Origin: an uncultured virus (IMG/VR IMGVR_UViG_3300047561_001544)
Taxonomy: Duplodnaviria > Heunggongvirae > Uroviricota > Caudoviricetes
DNA: 64,000 bases
Direction: 5' to 3' (one strand)
Virus record (IMG/VR): IMGVR_UViG_3300047561_001544
In this document: in pieces, positions 45,970 to 55,918 of the stretch
Position numbering within the stretch: position 1 is the first letter of the stretch
Layout of the letters: each line of letters opens with the position of its first letter
Position numbers and translations under genes: made by a program
Notes under the pieces: model-generated
Database searches by the model: none
Told to the model about the DNA's origin: nothing
The model's input: the letters and a program-made list of their open reading frames with translations, nothing else

Positions 45970-46424
45970 GGGGGTGAAAGGATTCGACCTGAGACTGAAT
46001 CTAAAAGCGCATGTAGAAGTTAATCGGTGGCTTCTTTAAAACCGATTAAAAAATTAAGAGCAGATAATACTGACTCCATCTTGGCTGAAGCCGAACATAT
46101 CTTCAACAATGCTGACGAATATCTCGTTGGTTTTGAAGACGAAATGCTCTTAGCAGCCTAAGATCCTTTAACCTAGATCCTCTAAGGGTTAATTGATAGC
46201 AGAGGTTGTTGAATTGTGGACTATATCAACGTAACAAAAAGAATCCTTCGTATGTAGATTTGCGATAATAATCTATAGGCAGACTTAAAACTCGGTTAGT
46301 GTCGCCAAGCAGCCTAAAGTCTTCGTTACCGTATGGTAGCTGAAATGCTAAAGACATTAAAACATGTAGACCTTTTAGATAATGTGTCAAGGGACTCGGC
46401 TATCGTAGGCCGACACCTCCACCA
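45970..46424 (+). ncRNA. ssrA: tmRNA
   Basis: 5' GGGGGTGAAAGGATTCGAC, 3' CACCTCCACCA with G3:U70; tag ORF 46060-46161 ADNTDSILAEAEHIFNNADEYLVGFEDEMLLAA*. Confidence 0.95.
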
Positions 46425-47712: not shown

Positions 47713-48339
47713 ATGAGTATTGTATCTTTAAGAGATAATCCATTTTGGGTGAATTCACAATATCAAATAGAAGGATTAAAAAAATTTATAGAATATATAA
47801 GAAATCAAAATCCAGACAATTCGAAATGGTTAGAAATAGGTTCATACACAGGCGAGTCTGCAAAAATTTTTTTATCATATGATTTTATAAAAAAACTTTA
47901 TTGTATAGATACTTGGTCAAAACATCCAGAACTTACATTAAATTCAATGCCGTTTCTTGAAGCGGAAGACCTTAATAAGGTGAAACAAATTTTTTTCACA
48001 AAATTAGATTCCGAAATACAATCTGGGCGTTGTGTACCAATTGAGGACTCTTCTAAAAATGCATTTGAGTATATAGATGAAATGTTCGATGTTATTTACT
48101 TAGATGGTTCGCATAGTCGTAAAGATGTTTTACAAGATTTAACTTTATGGTATTCAAAATTAAAATTTGGTGGATTTATGTGTGGACATGATTTTACTTT
48201 TGATCAAAATTCTGCTTTATATACATGCTCTCAGGGAATACAAGATTTTATATCTTCAATATCAAGATTTAAAACTATAGAGTTTCATATTTTTAAAGAT
48301 GGTAGTTGGGCATTTCAAAAATTAGAAAAATACTTTTGA
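47713..48339 (+). CDS. class I SAM-dependent methyltransferase (Methyltransf_24-like)
   Basis: LEIGSYTGES, IDTW, YLDGSH, GGFMCGHD. Confidence 0.88.
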   Translation: MSIVSLRDNPFWVNSQYQIEGLKKFIEYIRNQNPDNSKWLEIGSYTGESAKIFLSYDFIKKLYCIDTWSKHPELTLNSMPFLEAEDLNKVKQIFFTKLDSEIQSGRCVPIEDSSKNAFEYIDEMFDVIYLDGSHSRKDVLQDLTLWYSKLKFGGFMCGHDFTFDQNSALYTCSQGIQDFISSISRFKTIEFHIFKDGSWAFQKLEKYF

Positions 48340-51204: not shown

Positions 51205-51504
51205 ATGAGCGACAACTCAAATATTATCAACCAGTATGGATATCCTAGAATTACTGCGCCTGATCAACAATTAATTACTTTAATTGAATCAATGGGGAGA
51301 GCAGTAAGAGACAATGAATATAATTTCCCTGAGAAAAGATGGTTTCGCTTGTGCGAGATATATTATTCTTTGAGATATGGATTGTATGGTTATGCTTGGC
51401 AAAAAATCAACGATTTAAGGGACGATTTACGATGGAAGATTCCATCAGATGTTTATCATGCATTAAAAGACATATGTAAGGATATGAATGTTAAAATAGC
51501 ATGA
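51205..51504 (+). CDS. hypothetical protein
   Basis: 99-aa ORF. Confidence 0.6.
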   Translation: MSDNSNIINQYGYPRITAPDQQLITLIESMGRAVRDNEYNFPEKRWFRLCEIYYSLRYGLYGYAWQKINDLRDDLRWKIPSDVYHALKDICKDMNVKIA

Positions 51505-51510
51505 TTATTA

Positions 51511-51582
51511 TGCCAAGTAGCTCAGTGGTAGAGCGGTCGGCTGTTAACCGATTGGTCGTAGGTTCGAGCCCTACCTTGGCAG
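51511..51582 (+). tRNA. tRNA-Asn(GTT)
   Basis: GTCGG-CTGTTAA-CCGAT, TGCCAAG/CTTGGCA, G73. Confidence 0.93.
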
Positions 51583-51589
51583 TTTTTGT

Positions 51590-51916
51590 ATGAAAACCTG
51601 CGTGTATTGTAAAATTGAAAAAGATATAGGAGAGTTTCCTAAACACTCTTTATATAAAGACAATTTAGATATGCGTTGTAGAGATTGTATAAAAAAACAT
51701 GTTAAAGTTAGGAAAGAGCTTCATAAGAACGCGCCACCAAAACCCGAATTTTGCGAATGTTGTGGCAAAATTCCGCGCAAGTGGTGTTTAGATCACGATC
51801 ATAAAACTGATAAATTTCGTGGATGGTTATGTGATAAATGTAATACTGGCATTGGTAAATTGGGTGATGATTTAGAGGGTGTTATGAAAGCTGTTAAATT
51901 TTTAAAGAGGGTGTAA
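51590..51916 (+). CDS. endonuclease VII-family homing endonuclease
   Basis: CxxC motifs, LDHDH.T..FRGWLC..CN.GIG.LGD. Confidence 0.9.
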   Translation: MKTCVYCKIEKDIGEFPKHSLYKDNLDMRCRDCIKKHVKVRKELHKNAPPKPEFCECCGKIPRKWCLDHDHKTDKFRGWLCDKCNTGIGKLGDDLEGVMKAVKFLKRV

Positions 51917-51983
51917 TGGCACTGACTTCTAATCAGTACGCGCATAATGGATGATGCAGGTTCGAATCCTGTCACCCTCGCCA
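51907..51983 (+). tRNA. non-canonical tRNA-Arg(TCT)-like RNA with relocated D-arm elements
   Basis: GAGGGTG/CACCCTC-G-CCA, ACTGA-CTTCTAA-TCAGT, GCAGG-TTCGAAT-CCTGT; 7-nt linker instead of D-arm; 18-nt segment containing AATGGA after anticodon arm. Confidence 0.8.
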
Positions 51984-52328
51984 ATGTCTTAACCTATGAC
52001 AATTTGAGCAAAGAAGAACCGTTTTATCTAATTCTAAAAATAATTTATTTTTATTTATTTGTCTCATTTTAGTCCATTCGAATTTTTTTTGTTTTGGGTC
52101 TAAATGATGAAAATCAAAAATACATGAATTTGTGCCATCATATTTTACTAAACAGTCACAACATTGATTTCCTTTATAATCTAAGGCCACAATTCTTCTA
52201 GATTTCCATCTATCTGCAACATATTTATTAAAACAGTCTTTACAGTAGCTTTGTAATCGTTTTTTATTTTTAATATAAAAATCAGTTTCATTTTTAAAAT
52301 TTTTGCATTTTGAACATTGGATCATCAT
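51972..52328 (-). CDS. HNH homing endonuclease
   Basis: CxxC motifs, FDFHHLDP..K...LLCSNCHRLRH. Confidence 0.88.
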   Translation of the reverse strand: MMIQCSKCKNFKNETDFYIKNKKRLQSYCKDCFNKYVADRWKSRRIVALDYKGNQCCDCLVKYDGTNSCIFDFHHLDPKQKKFEWTKMRQINKNKLFLELDKTVLLCSNCHRLRHWRG

Positions 52329-52405
52329 AATGATGATTGGATAGAAAGATCTTATCTAAACTTTTTCTTGACCAAATATCAAAAATAACTTATAGTAATT
52401 TATAT

Positions 52406-52481
52406 GGCACAGTAGTCCAATGGCAGAGACAACAGACTTAAAATCTGTCAAGTGTGGGTTCGAGTCCCACCTGTGCTACCA
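52406..52481 (+). tRNA. tRNA-Leu(TAA), short variable loop
   Basis: ACAGA-CTTAAAA-TCTGT, 5-nt variable region, ACCA. Confidence 0.9.
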
Positions 52482-52490
52482 AATCATTTT

Positions 52491-52865
52491 ATGAAAACAA
52501 AATTTAATAAAAAATTTAGAGCTTTTGTGGATACACTTAATACATTATATTATTGGGACGTTTATGATGATTTTAGAAAAATAGATAAAAATTTAATTAA
52601 TTATAATGTTAACACTCATATACAATTTTCTAAAGAAAATTTTAATCCCCAACAGTTCACTGGTTTTAAAGACGCTAATAATAAAGAAATTTATGAAGGA
52701 GACTATATTAAATTAAACGATCAAAAAGATTGCGTAGTAGATTTTTTCAAGGGGAGTTTTATTTTAAAATTTTTTAATACTAAAAATGATTTTATTTGGT
52801 TTCATGATATCAAAGATAATGATATTTTAGAAATCAAAGGGACTATTTCCCATGATTTCAAATGA
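52491..52865 (+). CDS. YopX family protein
   Basis: KFRAF...QFTGFKDANNKEIYEGD. Confidence 0.8.
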   Translation: MKTKFNKKFRAFVDTLNTLYYWDVYDDFRKIDKNLINYNVNTHIQFSKENFNPQQFTGFKDANNKEIYEGDYIKLNDQKDCVVDFFKGSFILKFFNTKNDFIWFHDIKDNDILEIKGTISHDFK

Positions 52866-54832: not shown

Positions 54833-55825
54833 ATGAAAATATTGCCTTCTAAATCTATTTATTATGATAATGTTAATTTAGTTGCACAGCCGACCGAAGT
54901 AAAATCTCGTAAAGATATTCCACAAGAGTTAGAGAGAATTATGGTTAGTCCAATGCAGTCAATTGTTGGGCCAATTTTTGCGAAAAAAGCCCTTGAACTC
55001 GGGCTTTCGGTTTGTTTGCATCGTTTTAATTCAACAATTCAAGAACGGTTAAAGTTAATTAATGATGTATTTATGAATATGACCGACCCAAATATGGCGA
55101 AAAGAGTTTGGGTTTCAGTAGGATTAAAAGATTTAGAATATATAGAAGCTATTATACATCAAGGAGTAGAGAATATTATTATTGATGTGGCTAATGGATA
55201 TATGTCTGACGTAATTGAATTTGCGTCACAGATCTTTCATAAATCGGACAAACGAATTAAAAAAATTATGCTAGGTAATATTCATAGCGATACTATTCTT
55301 ACGGATTATCAGTACCTTTCTATTTATTTAGGTATTCCAATTTATTTTCGTTGCGGGATTGCTAGCGGTAGTGTTTGTAATACTAGCGGAATGACTGGAT
55401 ACAATCGCGGCCAAATTACGGAAATTAATGAATGTGCAACTTGGGTTGATTCTACTAATAGTAATTTAATTTTAGTTGCTGATGGAGGAATTGCTAATCC
55501 AGCTTGTGCAGCTAAGGCTTTTGGCGCAGGAGCGGAATATGTAATGATGGGCGGTTATTTTGCACATGCTAAAGAGTCTCAGCACGTTATTGATGAGATT
55601 TATAAATTTTGGGGTGGTGCTTCAGAATTTCAACAAATAATGTCTAAAGGAACGGCTGAACGTCATAGTGAAGGCAAAGAACAGGATATTAATAAAGATA
55701 ATCTTTTAAACTTGGATAAACTAGTTTCTGATTTATGGGGCGGTATTAGTAGCGCAGTTAGTTATAGCGGACATAAAACTCTCACAAAATTTATTGGAAA
55801 TGCGGTGTTTGAGATTAAAGAATAA
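54833..55825 (+). CDS. guaC: GMP reductase (IMPDH/GMPR family)
   Basis: IDVANGY, GIASGSVCNT, ADGGI, KAFGAGA.YVMMG, SEGK. Confidence 0.8.
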   Translation: MKILPSKSIYYDNVNLVAQPTEVKSRKDIPQELERIMVSPMQSIVGPIFAKKALELGLSVCLHRFNSTIQERLKLINDVFMNMTDPNMAKRVWVSVGLKDLEYIEAIIHQGVENIIIDVANGYMSDVIEFASQIFHKSDKRIKKIMLGNIHSDTILTDYQYLSIYLGIPIYFRCGIASGSVCNTSGMTGYNRGQITEINECATWVDSTNSNLILVADGGIANPACAAKAFGAGAEYVMMGGYFAHAKESQHVIDEIYKFWGGASEFQQIMSKGTAERHSEGKEQDINKDNLLNLDKLVSDLWGGISSAVSYSGHKTLTKFIGNAVFEIKE

Positions 55826-55831
55826 AAATAT

Positions 55832-55918
55832 GGAAGCGTACTCAAGCGGTTTACGAGAGAAATTTACTAAATTTCCGAGGTCTAAAAGCCTCCGTGGGTT
55901 CGAATCCCACCGCTTCCT
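55832..55918 (+). tRNA. tRNA-Ser(ACT)
   Basis: GGAAGCG/CGCTTCC, GAAAT-TTACTAA-ATTTC, long variable arm GAGGT/GCCTC. Confidence 0.85.

Follow-up and report, generated by a model that had tools for sequence, protein, structure and literature searches.

To our knowledge, the order of the arms in the tRNA cloverleaf is treated as universal outside organelles. Red algae and archaea have circularly permuted and split tRNA genes, in which processing undoes the permutation, and the mature tRNA is canonical. The tRNA-like domain of transfer-messenger RNA (tmRNA) carries a D-loop analogue 5' of a long helix, which replaces the anticodon stem, and has no anticodon loop. D-armless mitochondrial tRNAs (mt-tRNAs), such as mammalian mt-tRNA-Ser(AGY) and nematode mt-tRNAs, combine loss of the D arm with greater flexibility, as described in the available part of PMC7609411. 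Allo-tRNAs and the (8/4) and (9/3) tRNAs show altered stem lengths and long variable arms with the arm order kept, according to the available text of Mukai et al. (PMC5389517). Here, we analyzed a tRNA-Arg(UCU) gene at positions 51907–51983 (+) of a 64,000-nucleotide (nt) stretch of DNA, referred to as the window, from an uncultured Caudoviricetes virus of a freshwater metagenome (IMG/VR record IMGVR_UViG_3300047561_001544; G+C about 30%). In this gene, hereafter the rewired gene, the segment resembling the 5' strand of the D stem and the D loop lies 3' of the anticodon arm.

Like the D-armless mt-tRNAs covered in that source, the rewired tRNA has no stem-loop at the D-arm position, its acceptor and anticodon stems being joined by a short connector; unlike them, it has a G18–G19 D-loop element and a D-stem-like helix formed from non-adjacent strands, and it is phage-borne rather than organellar. 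The D-loop element that docks onto the T loop, whose loss marks the D-armless form, was kept together with its partner, as GG(A) and the GTTCRA T loop were present in 94/94 members of the family described below. The rewired gene and the permuted or split genes alike depart from the textbook order of tRNA parts, but in the rewired gene the acceptor strands stand at both ends and an internal segment is transposed. The arrangement of a circularly permuted gene (3' half first, acceptor ends internal) was not found, the acceptor strands being terminal and in normal order. Because an internal transposition cannot be reversed by circularization, the mature RNA itself should be rewired. With the allo-tRNAs, so far as the available text describes them, the rewired tRNA shares its non-canonical form, its occurrence in metagenome and phage tRNA clusters and its being missed by standard finders, whereas its 7/5 arrangement is kept and its order is changed. 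The tmRNA domain also combines an acceptor stem and a T arm with a D-loop analogue that no normal D stem closes; by contrast, the rewired tRNA has a normal anticodon loop, with the analogue on the 3' side of the helix.

The sequence-only reading, a model-made account of the letters of the window and their open reading frames (ORFs), had known of no named class with this topology. Neither the rewired layout nor a named class for it was found in the searchable full-text literature, a scope outside which most subscription journals and supplements fall, and the available parts of PMC7609411 and PMC5389517 gave no description of it. The available part of the rV5 paper lists a tRNA-Arg(AGA) (PMC3606486); as the rV5 record held no rewired copy at E ≤ 1e-8, this paper was rejected as a prior description.

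A phage tRNA-Arg class with a transposed D segment

The window gene reads GAGGGTG TA ATGGC ACTGA CTTCTAA TCAGT AC GCGCAT AATGGATGAT GCAGG TTCGAAT CCTGT CACCCTC G CCA. The acceptor, UCU anticodon and T arms are intact. The D-arm site is only 7 nt long, and the stretch from position 9 to the anticodon arm has 5 nt and no stem-loop. The linker ATGGC runs directly into the anticodon stem, and the 18-nt segment ACGCGCATAATGGATGAT, located 3' of the anticodon arm, contains the D-loop-like AAUGGAUG. This parse, proposed in the sequence-only reading, was confirmed letter for letter. The minimum-free-energy fold (−23 kcal/mol) gave the same structure. It has a 7-base-pair (bp) acceptor stem, a singly bulged AUGGC/GCGCAU helix that stacks on the anticodon stem, and then a single strand of 10 nt followed by the T arm.

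A scan for the identical anticodon arm recovered 14 viral contigs (L001–L014) with canonical tRNA-Arg(UCU) genes, and eight canonical genes had the form gctctcg ta GCAT AACGGATA ATGC a ACTGA CTTCTAA TCAGT agatt/agagt GCAGG TTCGAAT CCTGC cgagagc. The canonical genes match the window gene exactly in the anticodon arm and almost exactly in the T arm, and they share with it the GCAT letters of the D stem, the AAYGGATR D-loop motif, U8–A9 and a 7-bp acceptor stem, as well as the same presumed identity set (A20, C35 and U36). The canonical order places the D-stem 5' strand and D loop before the anticodon arm and a variable loop of 5 nt after it; the window gene has GCAT-AATGGATG on the 3' side of that arm and just 5 nt on its 5' side.

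Standard tools handled the rewired gene poorly. The Rfam tRNA model (RF00005) matched 51907–51980 at 39.2 bits, passing the gathering score of 29, with 15 D-arm model positions deleted (4 nt left) and 15 nt inserted in the variable region; the same model reached threshold in 5/20 other family members tested. ARAGORN reported 11 other tRNAs in the window and did not call the rewired one. It also overlooked the rewired gene in 12/13 loci, plus phage phi92 and phage Wildcat.

The family was collected by four pattern scans followed by a strict parser (acceptor stem ≥6/7 pairs, anticodon and T stems ≥4/5 pairs, loop YTYCTAM) and then by a covariance model, R1, built from a MAFFT alignment (A1) of 94 members. 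The first scan, for the D-loop/T-arm junction, gave 21 viral loci, 13 of them with the full layout; the second round gave 30 viral and 96 bacterial-genome loci, the metagenome scan at least 118 loci, and a viral scan without the D-loop-segment constraint at least 116 loci. Pattern scans and parser together yielded at least 94 distinct sequences with the rewired layout (54 metagenome, 35 viral, 3 bacterial-genome, 1 GenBank and the window). The homologue search that the sequence-only reading had called for was thus productive, and its claim that positions ~10–21 occupy the place of the variable region was supported across the 94 sequences. R1 scored the window copy and 13 relatives at 70.6–85.9 bits and all ordinary tRNAs at 38.2 bits or less (258 kb, 36 sources). 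Only 4/96 bacterial-genome matches were members (L091, L094, L113 and L120), indicating that the rewired form is essentially phage-borne. The other 92 bacterial-genome matches were rejected as non-members, as were L016, L020/L024/L032, L026/L035, L028 and L031, and L040, L054 and L056 proved to be normal tRNAs.

U8, A9, A14, G18–G19–A20 and a closing A–U ahead of the T stem were invariant or almost invariant. GGA was present in 94/94 members, 25 of these rows coming from the scan that left that segment unconstrained. The penultimate A of the D-loop analogue was kept in 94/94 and its final T in 90/94. A37 was found in 94/94 members and U33 was also kept, in a loop that the search patterns partly fixed. 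Positions 14, 15 and 48 were A, A and T in 88 rows and A, G and C in 2. The discriminator was variable (A 33, T 32, G 28, C 1; G in the window), and alignment columns 32–38, comprising the connector and the partner of the linker's last base, held 3–7 nt across the family, with a longer connector in the phi92/Felix O1-like clade.

The locus was also recovered from independent samples. The exact tRNA of the window was present in metagenome contig L223. A contig from a run of a different study spanned 51452–52420 with 37 differences, none listed within the tRNA, and a contig from a third study covered 51910–51976 with 4 differences and an additional T in the D-loop analogue; other family members also show this variant. 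The low Rfam score of 39.2 bits, the lack of an ARAGORN call and a nuclease ORF running into the 5' end of the gene would fit a decayed tRNA pseudogene or an assembly artefact of the window contig. However, this explanation is refuted by 94 distinct relatives with compensatory changes, by the identical sequence in L223 and coverage in runs of two other studies, and by the 257 GenBank phage records that match the phi92 copy, which leave it a negligible probability. A phage tRNA-Arg class with a transposed D segment is real, conserved and largely unannotated.

Several variant forms were observed in the scans. L059 290–363 (−) and L120 (an Ensifer sesbaniae scaffold) are members with an 8-nt anticodon loop, CCTTCTAT, on a 4-bp stem, and L029 1293–1366 (+) is a member with C for U at position 33 (CCCCTAA). 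Among the pattern matches, L126 joins the acceptor stem straight to the D-loop motif and T arm, the anticodon arm being absent; in L117, an arm of 9 bp with a 17-nt loop replaces the anticodon arm; L026/L035 combine one acceptor frame with two T-arm-like hairpins; and L020/L024/L032 are CCA-ended T-arm elements.

Covariation of all four helices

All four helices, including that between the linker and the relocated strand, covaried in A1. The four-helix model paired 91.8% of cells, compared with 67.1% in shuffles (0/500 reached the observed value) and 35–48% with slid partners. The acceptor stem was paired in 98.8% of cells with 7/7 pairs covarying, the anticodon stem in 94.0% with 5/5 and the T stem in 99.8% with 4/5.

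The linker helix was defined as linker bases 2–4 with the three bases preceding the conserved T-A-A. As the sequence-only reading had proposed, the linker pairs with the relocated strand: 89.0% of cells were paired in register versus 15–55% when slid, with compensatory changes at 11–41 (CG 66, UA 27, other 1), 12–40 (GC 87 plus AU, CG, GU and UA, five standard pair types) and 13–39 (GC 59 plus UA, AU, CG and GU, again five standard types). About ten complementary linker triplets were found (CGG/CCG, CGT/ACG, CAG/CTG, CGA/TCG, CTC/GAG, CCG/CGG, CGC/GCG, CCC/GGG, TCC/GGA and the bulged TGG form). The window's clade consists of the 27 rows in which 11–41 is UA; in a register with one bulged G, these rows gave UA 27/27 at 11–41, GC 27/27 at 12–40, GC 15 and GU 12 at 13–38, and CG 27/27 at 14–37. 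Hence, the bulged AUGGC/GCGCAU pairing first noticed in the window copy holds in every member of its clade.

The same alignment bears on whether the gene is a canonical tRNA in disguise, in which the hairpin GCAT-AATGGATG-ATGC is the true D or variable arm, or in which another register applies. A perfect GCAT...ATGC hairpin does exist in the window, ARAGORN gives L022 as a 93-nt intron-containing tRNA-Arg(tct), and GenBank gives the copy of Streptomyces phage Yaboi as tRNA-Val(aac), but such readings are not common to the family. The ATGC strand takes the first two bases of the T stem, and the full hairpin was rejected for its conflict with the covarying T stem: column 59 variants (A 4, C 2) keep the T-stem pair 59–75 (AU 4, CG 2) and lose the hairpin pair. 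A smaller local hairpin, in which bases 11–13 close the D-loop analogue by pairing with the AYG after GG, showed one-sided changes only (pair 41–54: GU 32, GC 31, AU 20, other 11) and was also rejected. A disguised canonical tRNA is accordingly very improbable.

Proposed structural model and predicted arginine identity

The canonical L-shape contains the pairs 15–48 and G18–Psi55 and the base triple 13-22-46, as given in the available part of PMC5485724. In the model proposed here, segment 10–21 (the D-stem 5' strand and D loop) would lie between the anticodon and T stems, and the five bases after U8–A9 would serve as the D-stem 3' strand (22–26) and continue into the anticodon stem. Linker and relocated strand would pair to rebuild a D stem of 3–4 bp stacked on the anticodon stem, and the relocated loop would present A14, R15, G18, G19 and A20 at the elbow, after which the chain would pass from an A21-like base via a U48-like base into the T stem (Table 1). 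Three new junctions would result, from 9 to 22, from 45 to 10 and from 21 to 48. In yeast tRNA-Phe, base triples are formed by 9-12-23, 10-25-45 and 8-14-21, and 15 pairs with 48. By these contacts, the new junctions would link nucleotides that are neighbours in the canonical L-shape, so the same three-dimensional body could form under a different threading, and a re-threaded, otherwise normal L-shape is a plausible prediction. Taken together, we consider it likely, on comparative sequence evidence, that the window carries a real, conserved phage tRNA-Arg(UCU) gene whose product is a topological isomer of normal tRNA and serves as an AGR decoder with a re-threaded L-shape.

Table 1. Parts of the rewired tRNA-Arg(UCU) gene and the adjoining ORF in the window
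Feature	Position	Strand	Remarks
Endonuclease VII/HNH-type ORF	51590..51916	+	Pfam PF02945, E = 4e-13
Acceptor stem, 5' strand GAGGGTG	51907..51913	+	Partner 51973–51979 in the fold
U8–A9 equivalents (TA)	51914..51915	+	TA in 94/94 family members; not demanded by the parser
Linker ATGGC, 5 nt, as putative D-stem 3' strand (positions 22–26)	51916..51920	+	Pairs with 51940–51945, one bulged G
Anticodon arm ACTGA CTTCTAA TCAGT	51921..51937	+	Anticodon TCT at 51928–51930
Connector AC, 2 nt, in the place of 44–45	51938..51939	+	Unpaired in the fold
Relocated D-stem 5' strand GCGCAT	51940..51945	+	Final four bases GCAT as in the D stem of canonical relatives
D-loop analogue AATGGATG, then AT	51946..51955	+	A14 A15 .. 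G18 G19 A20 .. then A21- and U48-like bases
T arm GCAGG TTCGAAT CCTGT	51956..51972	+	Sequence and fold; 5-bp stem and 7-nt loop, GTTCRANNC type
Acceptor 3' strand CACCCTC, discriminator G, encoded CCA	51973..51983	+	Sequence

Several observations weigh against this interpretation. The linker helix is short (3–4 bp), RNAalifold on A1 predicted the acceptor, anticodon and T arms only and not the linker helix, and at least three linker pairs appeared in just 42/94 single-sequence minimum-energy folds; moreover, local hairpins cannot be separated from the linker helix by energy. Pair 13–39 fails in 28/94 rows unless the window's clade, which accounts for 27 of the 28 failures, is read in the bulged register, and an additional pair, 10–42, was rejected as unsupported (AU 9, other 85). 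The fold of the window copy is of ordinary stability (z = −1.48; 17/200 shuffles equally stable), so the case beyond chance depends on conservation and not on energy. Covariation between 15 and 48 consists of 2 rows from one locus, and 2 rows with G opposite G contradict it. The collection is biased, since the YCT anticodon loop was fixed in the last two scans, the AAYGGAYR motif in all scans but the last and the loop again in the parser, and part of the invariance is therefore built in. The rows of A1 are related, and the shuffle statistics consequently overstate independence. Finally, the three-junction argument depends on contacts in the crystal structure of yeast tRNA-Phe.

Arginine identity of bacterial tRNA is set by A20, C35, U/G36 and N73 (discriminator A, G or U), according to the available part of PMC9976931. 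C35 and U36 are present in the window gene (anticodon TCT), and its discriminator G fits this set. The A that follows GG in 94/94 members is, we infer, the spatial equivalent of A20. When the anticodon was left unconstrained, 66/68 layout matches had an Arg anticodon (TCT 40, CCT 25, TCG 1), the others being one TAT (L021) and one doubtful AAT; the G18–G19–A20 motif and Arg anticodon recognized in the sequence-only reading are thus kept in the family. With C35, U36 and the putative A20 kept, the host arginyl-tRNA synthetase (ArgRS) would be expected to charge the rewired tRNA, which would then decode AGA for the phage.

The setting of the gene is consistent with such a role. A canonical tRNA with the same anticodon was found by ARAGORN in 0/13 six-kb member loci. 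In whole genomes, phi92 has 15 canonical tRNAs, none of them for Arg, and exactly one rewired gene, and Wildcat has Arg(acg) as its sole canonical tRNA-Arg and exactly one rewired gene. Among the Arg codons of the window, AGA is the most frequent (181/456 in 44 ORFs). Rewired UCU and CCU versions stand in tandem in L254, L322 and L047. A promoter match (TTGACA-17-TATAGT, 11/12) ends 12 nt upstream of the phi92 copy; no promoter match was found directly upstream of the window copy. One RNA run (X24) contained contigs resembling the neighbouring canonical tRNA-Asn and tRNA-Leu only and left 51907–51983 uncovered, which is uninformative either way.

Two loci with other anticodons were also noted. 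L021 3295–3376 (−) holds an 82-nt rewired gene with TAT (Ile AUA type), a longer connector and an R1 score of 38.2 bits, and L199 holds a 77-nt rewired TCG (Arg) gene and a CCT copy within one 337-nt locus.

Alternatively, the product may be a tRNA-like RNA that acts outside translation, as a decoy or sponge for a host anticodon nuclease or other tRNA-targeting defence, or as a binder of ArgRS or a modification enzyme. A decoy role, like evasion of host tRNA nucleases, had been raised as a possibility in the sequence-only reading. A non-canonical core rejected by standard finders, with ARAGORN missing 12/13 loci and 5/20 members at the Rfam threshold, would be in keeping with this, and restriction to one amino-acid family also suits a decoy for an Arg-specific enzyme. 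Nevertheless, the features of a working tRNA are kept (7-bp acceptor stem, free discriminator, GTTCRA T loop, U33, A37, the putative A20, C35 and U36), the gene sits in tRNA clusters that have no canonical tRNA of that anticodon, and UCU, CCU and UCG versions occur, sometimes in tandem, as decoders would show. We therefore regard an RNA outside translation as unlikely, and the rewired tRNA-Arg is probably a working AGR decoder.

Distribution, neighbouring genes and significance

Megablast and blastn searches of the locus against GenBank phages found no close relative; the nearest record (G001) is a 35.8-kb fragment without the gene. The tRNA itself is widespread: the window tRNA matched 88 GenBank phage records and the phi92 copy 257, with ≥80% coverage in 256 cases (by host, Escherichia 137, Salmonella 50, Klebsiella 37, Streptomyces 8 and others). 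GenBank carriers include phi92 and Felix O1-like, Klebsiella, Streptomyces and Mycobacterium (Wildcat) phages, and the copies in wV8, Sugarland, jumbo phage JNE01, KpS8, LPML1 and Yaboi scored 57.5–71.7 bits with R1 and had the rewired layout with UCU.

Annotation of the gene was rare. Among the 60 phi92-copy matches listed, 46 had no feature at the site, 6 were unannotated records, 5 had a coding sequence only, 2 had tRNA-OTHER, 1 had tRNA-Val(aac) and 0 had tRNA-Arg. A second set of GenBank records, Klebsiella phages included, gave tRNA-OTHER in 6/49 and Arg in 0/49, and the records of phi92, Wildcat and Karp carry no annotation for the gene. The tRNA-Val(aac) label belongs to Yaboi (L429 145–223; MH727564.1 86686–86764), where R1 fits the copy as a UCU member at 71.7 bits, and the label is thus probably a misannotation.

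In the window, the rewired gene lies in a cluster with the 11 tRNAs called by ARAGORN and a tmRNA. The tmRNA, at 45970–46424 (+), was identified by Rfam (RF00023, 84.5 bits) and is not among the ARAGORN calls. A long-variable-arm tRNA-Ser(ACT) was called by ARAGORN at 55832–55918 (+) and scored 46.1 bits with Rfam; its A34 is unusual for a Ser(AGY) decoder. Three ORFs between tRNA genes, at 54833–55825 (+), 47713–48339 (+) and 52452–52865 (+), match the IMPDH/GMP-reductase family, a methyltransferase domain and YopX, respectively.

The final 10 nt of the endonuclease ORF, TAA stop included, overlap the 5' end of the rewired tRNA. A 13-nt direct repeat with one mismatch was also found (+), copy 1 at 51874–51886 (AGAGGGTGTTATG) within the 3' end of the endonuclease ORF and copy 2 at 51906–51918 (AGAGGGTGTAATG), which consists of the tRNA 5' end plus one base before it. 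Elsewhere in the window's clade, Fic/DOC-domain ORFs lie about 600 nt or less from the rewired tRNA (L015 2182–2703 (−) and L034 3610–4095 (+)), and in Streptomyces-phage contigs ORFs for an Rv2179c-like 3'-5' exoribonuclease adjoin it (L019 2217–2843 (−) and L030 3302–3922 (+)).

The overlap raises the possibility that the rewired gene is the resistant allele of a homing-endonuclease cassette, in which the nuclease would cut canonical tRNA-Arg genes and rewiring would remove the target while keeping tRNA function. Such a cassette would explain the spread among unrelated phages. Mydovirus myophages (~144 kb) and Sugarlandvirus siphophages (~110 kb) of Klebsiella share residues 3–76 of the rewired tRNA (a 74-nt core) with 100% identity, an indication that the gene was transferred recently among unrelated phages infecting the same host. 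Homing-type nucleases were located within 1.2 kb in 3/16 member loci, namely the window, L027 (HNH_2, HNH_3) and L033 (GIY-YIG), and GenBank has HNH genes at or adjoining the rewired gene in Sugarland, warpig, I14.1 and K18PH07C1. On the other hand, 13/16 loci lacked a homing-type nuclease at that distance, phage tRNA clusters often contain homing endonucleases in any case, and there is no known cleavage site. Furthermore, relatives of the window endonuclease (63–74% identity) had a rewired tRNA within 1.5 kb in 0/80 loci (best R1 score 28.2 bits), and the cassette was rejected for this nuclease family. The juxtaposition in the window is thus treated as incidental and the cassette idea in general as weak. 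It would be an account of origin and spread compatible with a working decoder, and we rate it as quite improbable.

For a working decoder, our leading but tentative guess, itself on the doubtful side, is that the wiring may be kept because it lets the tRNA evade a host or phage factor directed at canonical tRNA-Arg or at the gene encoding it. In its fullest form, a reading we hold to be rather unlikely, the family would be a widespread class of elongator tRNAs whose mature form is a cloverleaf isomer with the same L-shape and Arg identity, active in bacterial translation during infection of E. coli, Salmonella, Klebsiella, Streptomyces and Mycobacterium and kept by evading an agent directed at canonical tRNA-Arg or its gene, for example a nuclease, defence system or homing endonuclease.

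Known coliphages are among the carriers, and the gene is almost never annotated in them. Because the family is present in culturable coliphages, the question is open to direct testing. If the rewired tRNA is charged and used in translation, the inventories of phage tRNAs would systematically miss one Arg decoder, and the absent AGR decoder of phi92, Felix O1-like phages and Wildcat would be accounted for. It would also follow that bacterial ArgRS, EF-Tu, RNase P, the CCA enzyme and the ribosome tolerate a re-threaded tRNA, which would provide a natural scaffold for orthogonal-tRNA engineering, and that natural re-threading of the tRNA core is possible without loss of function.

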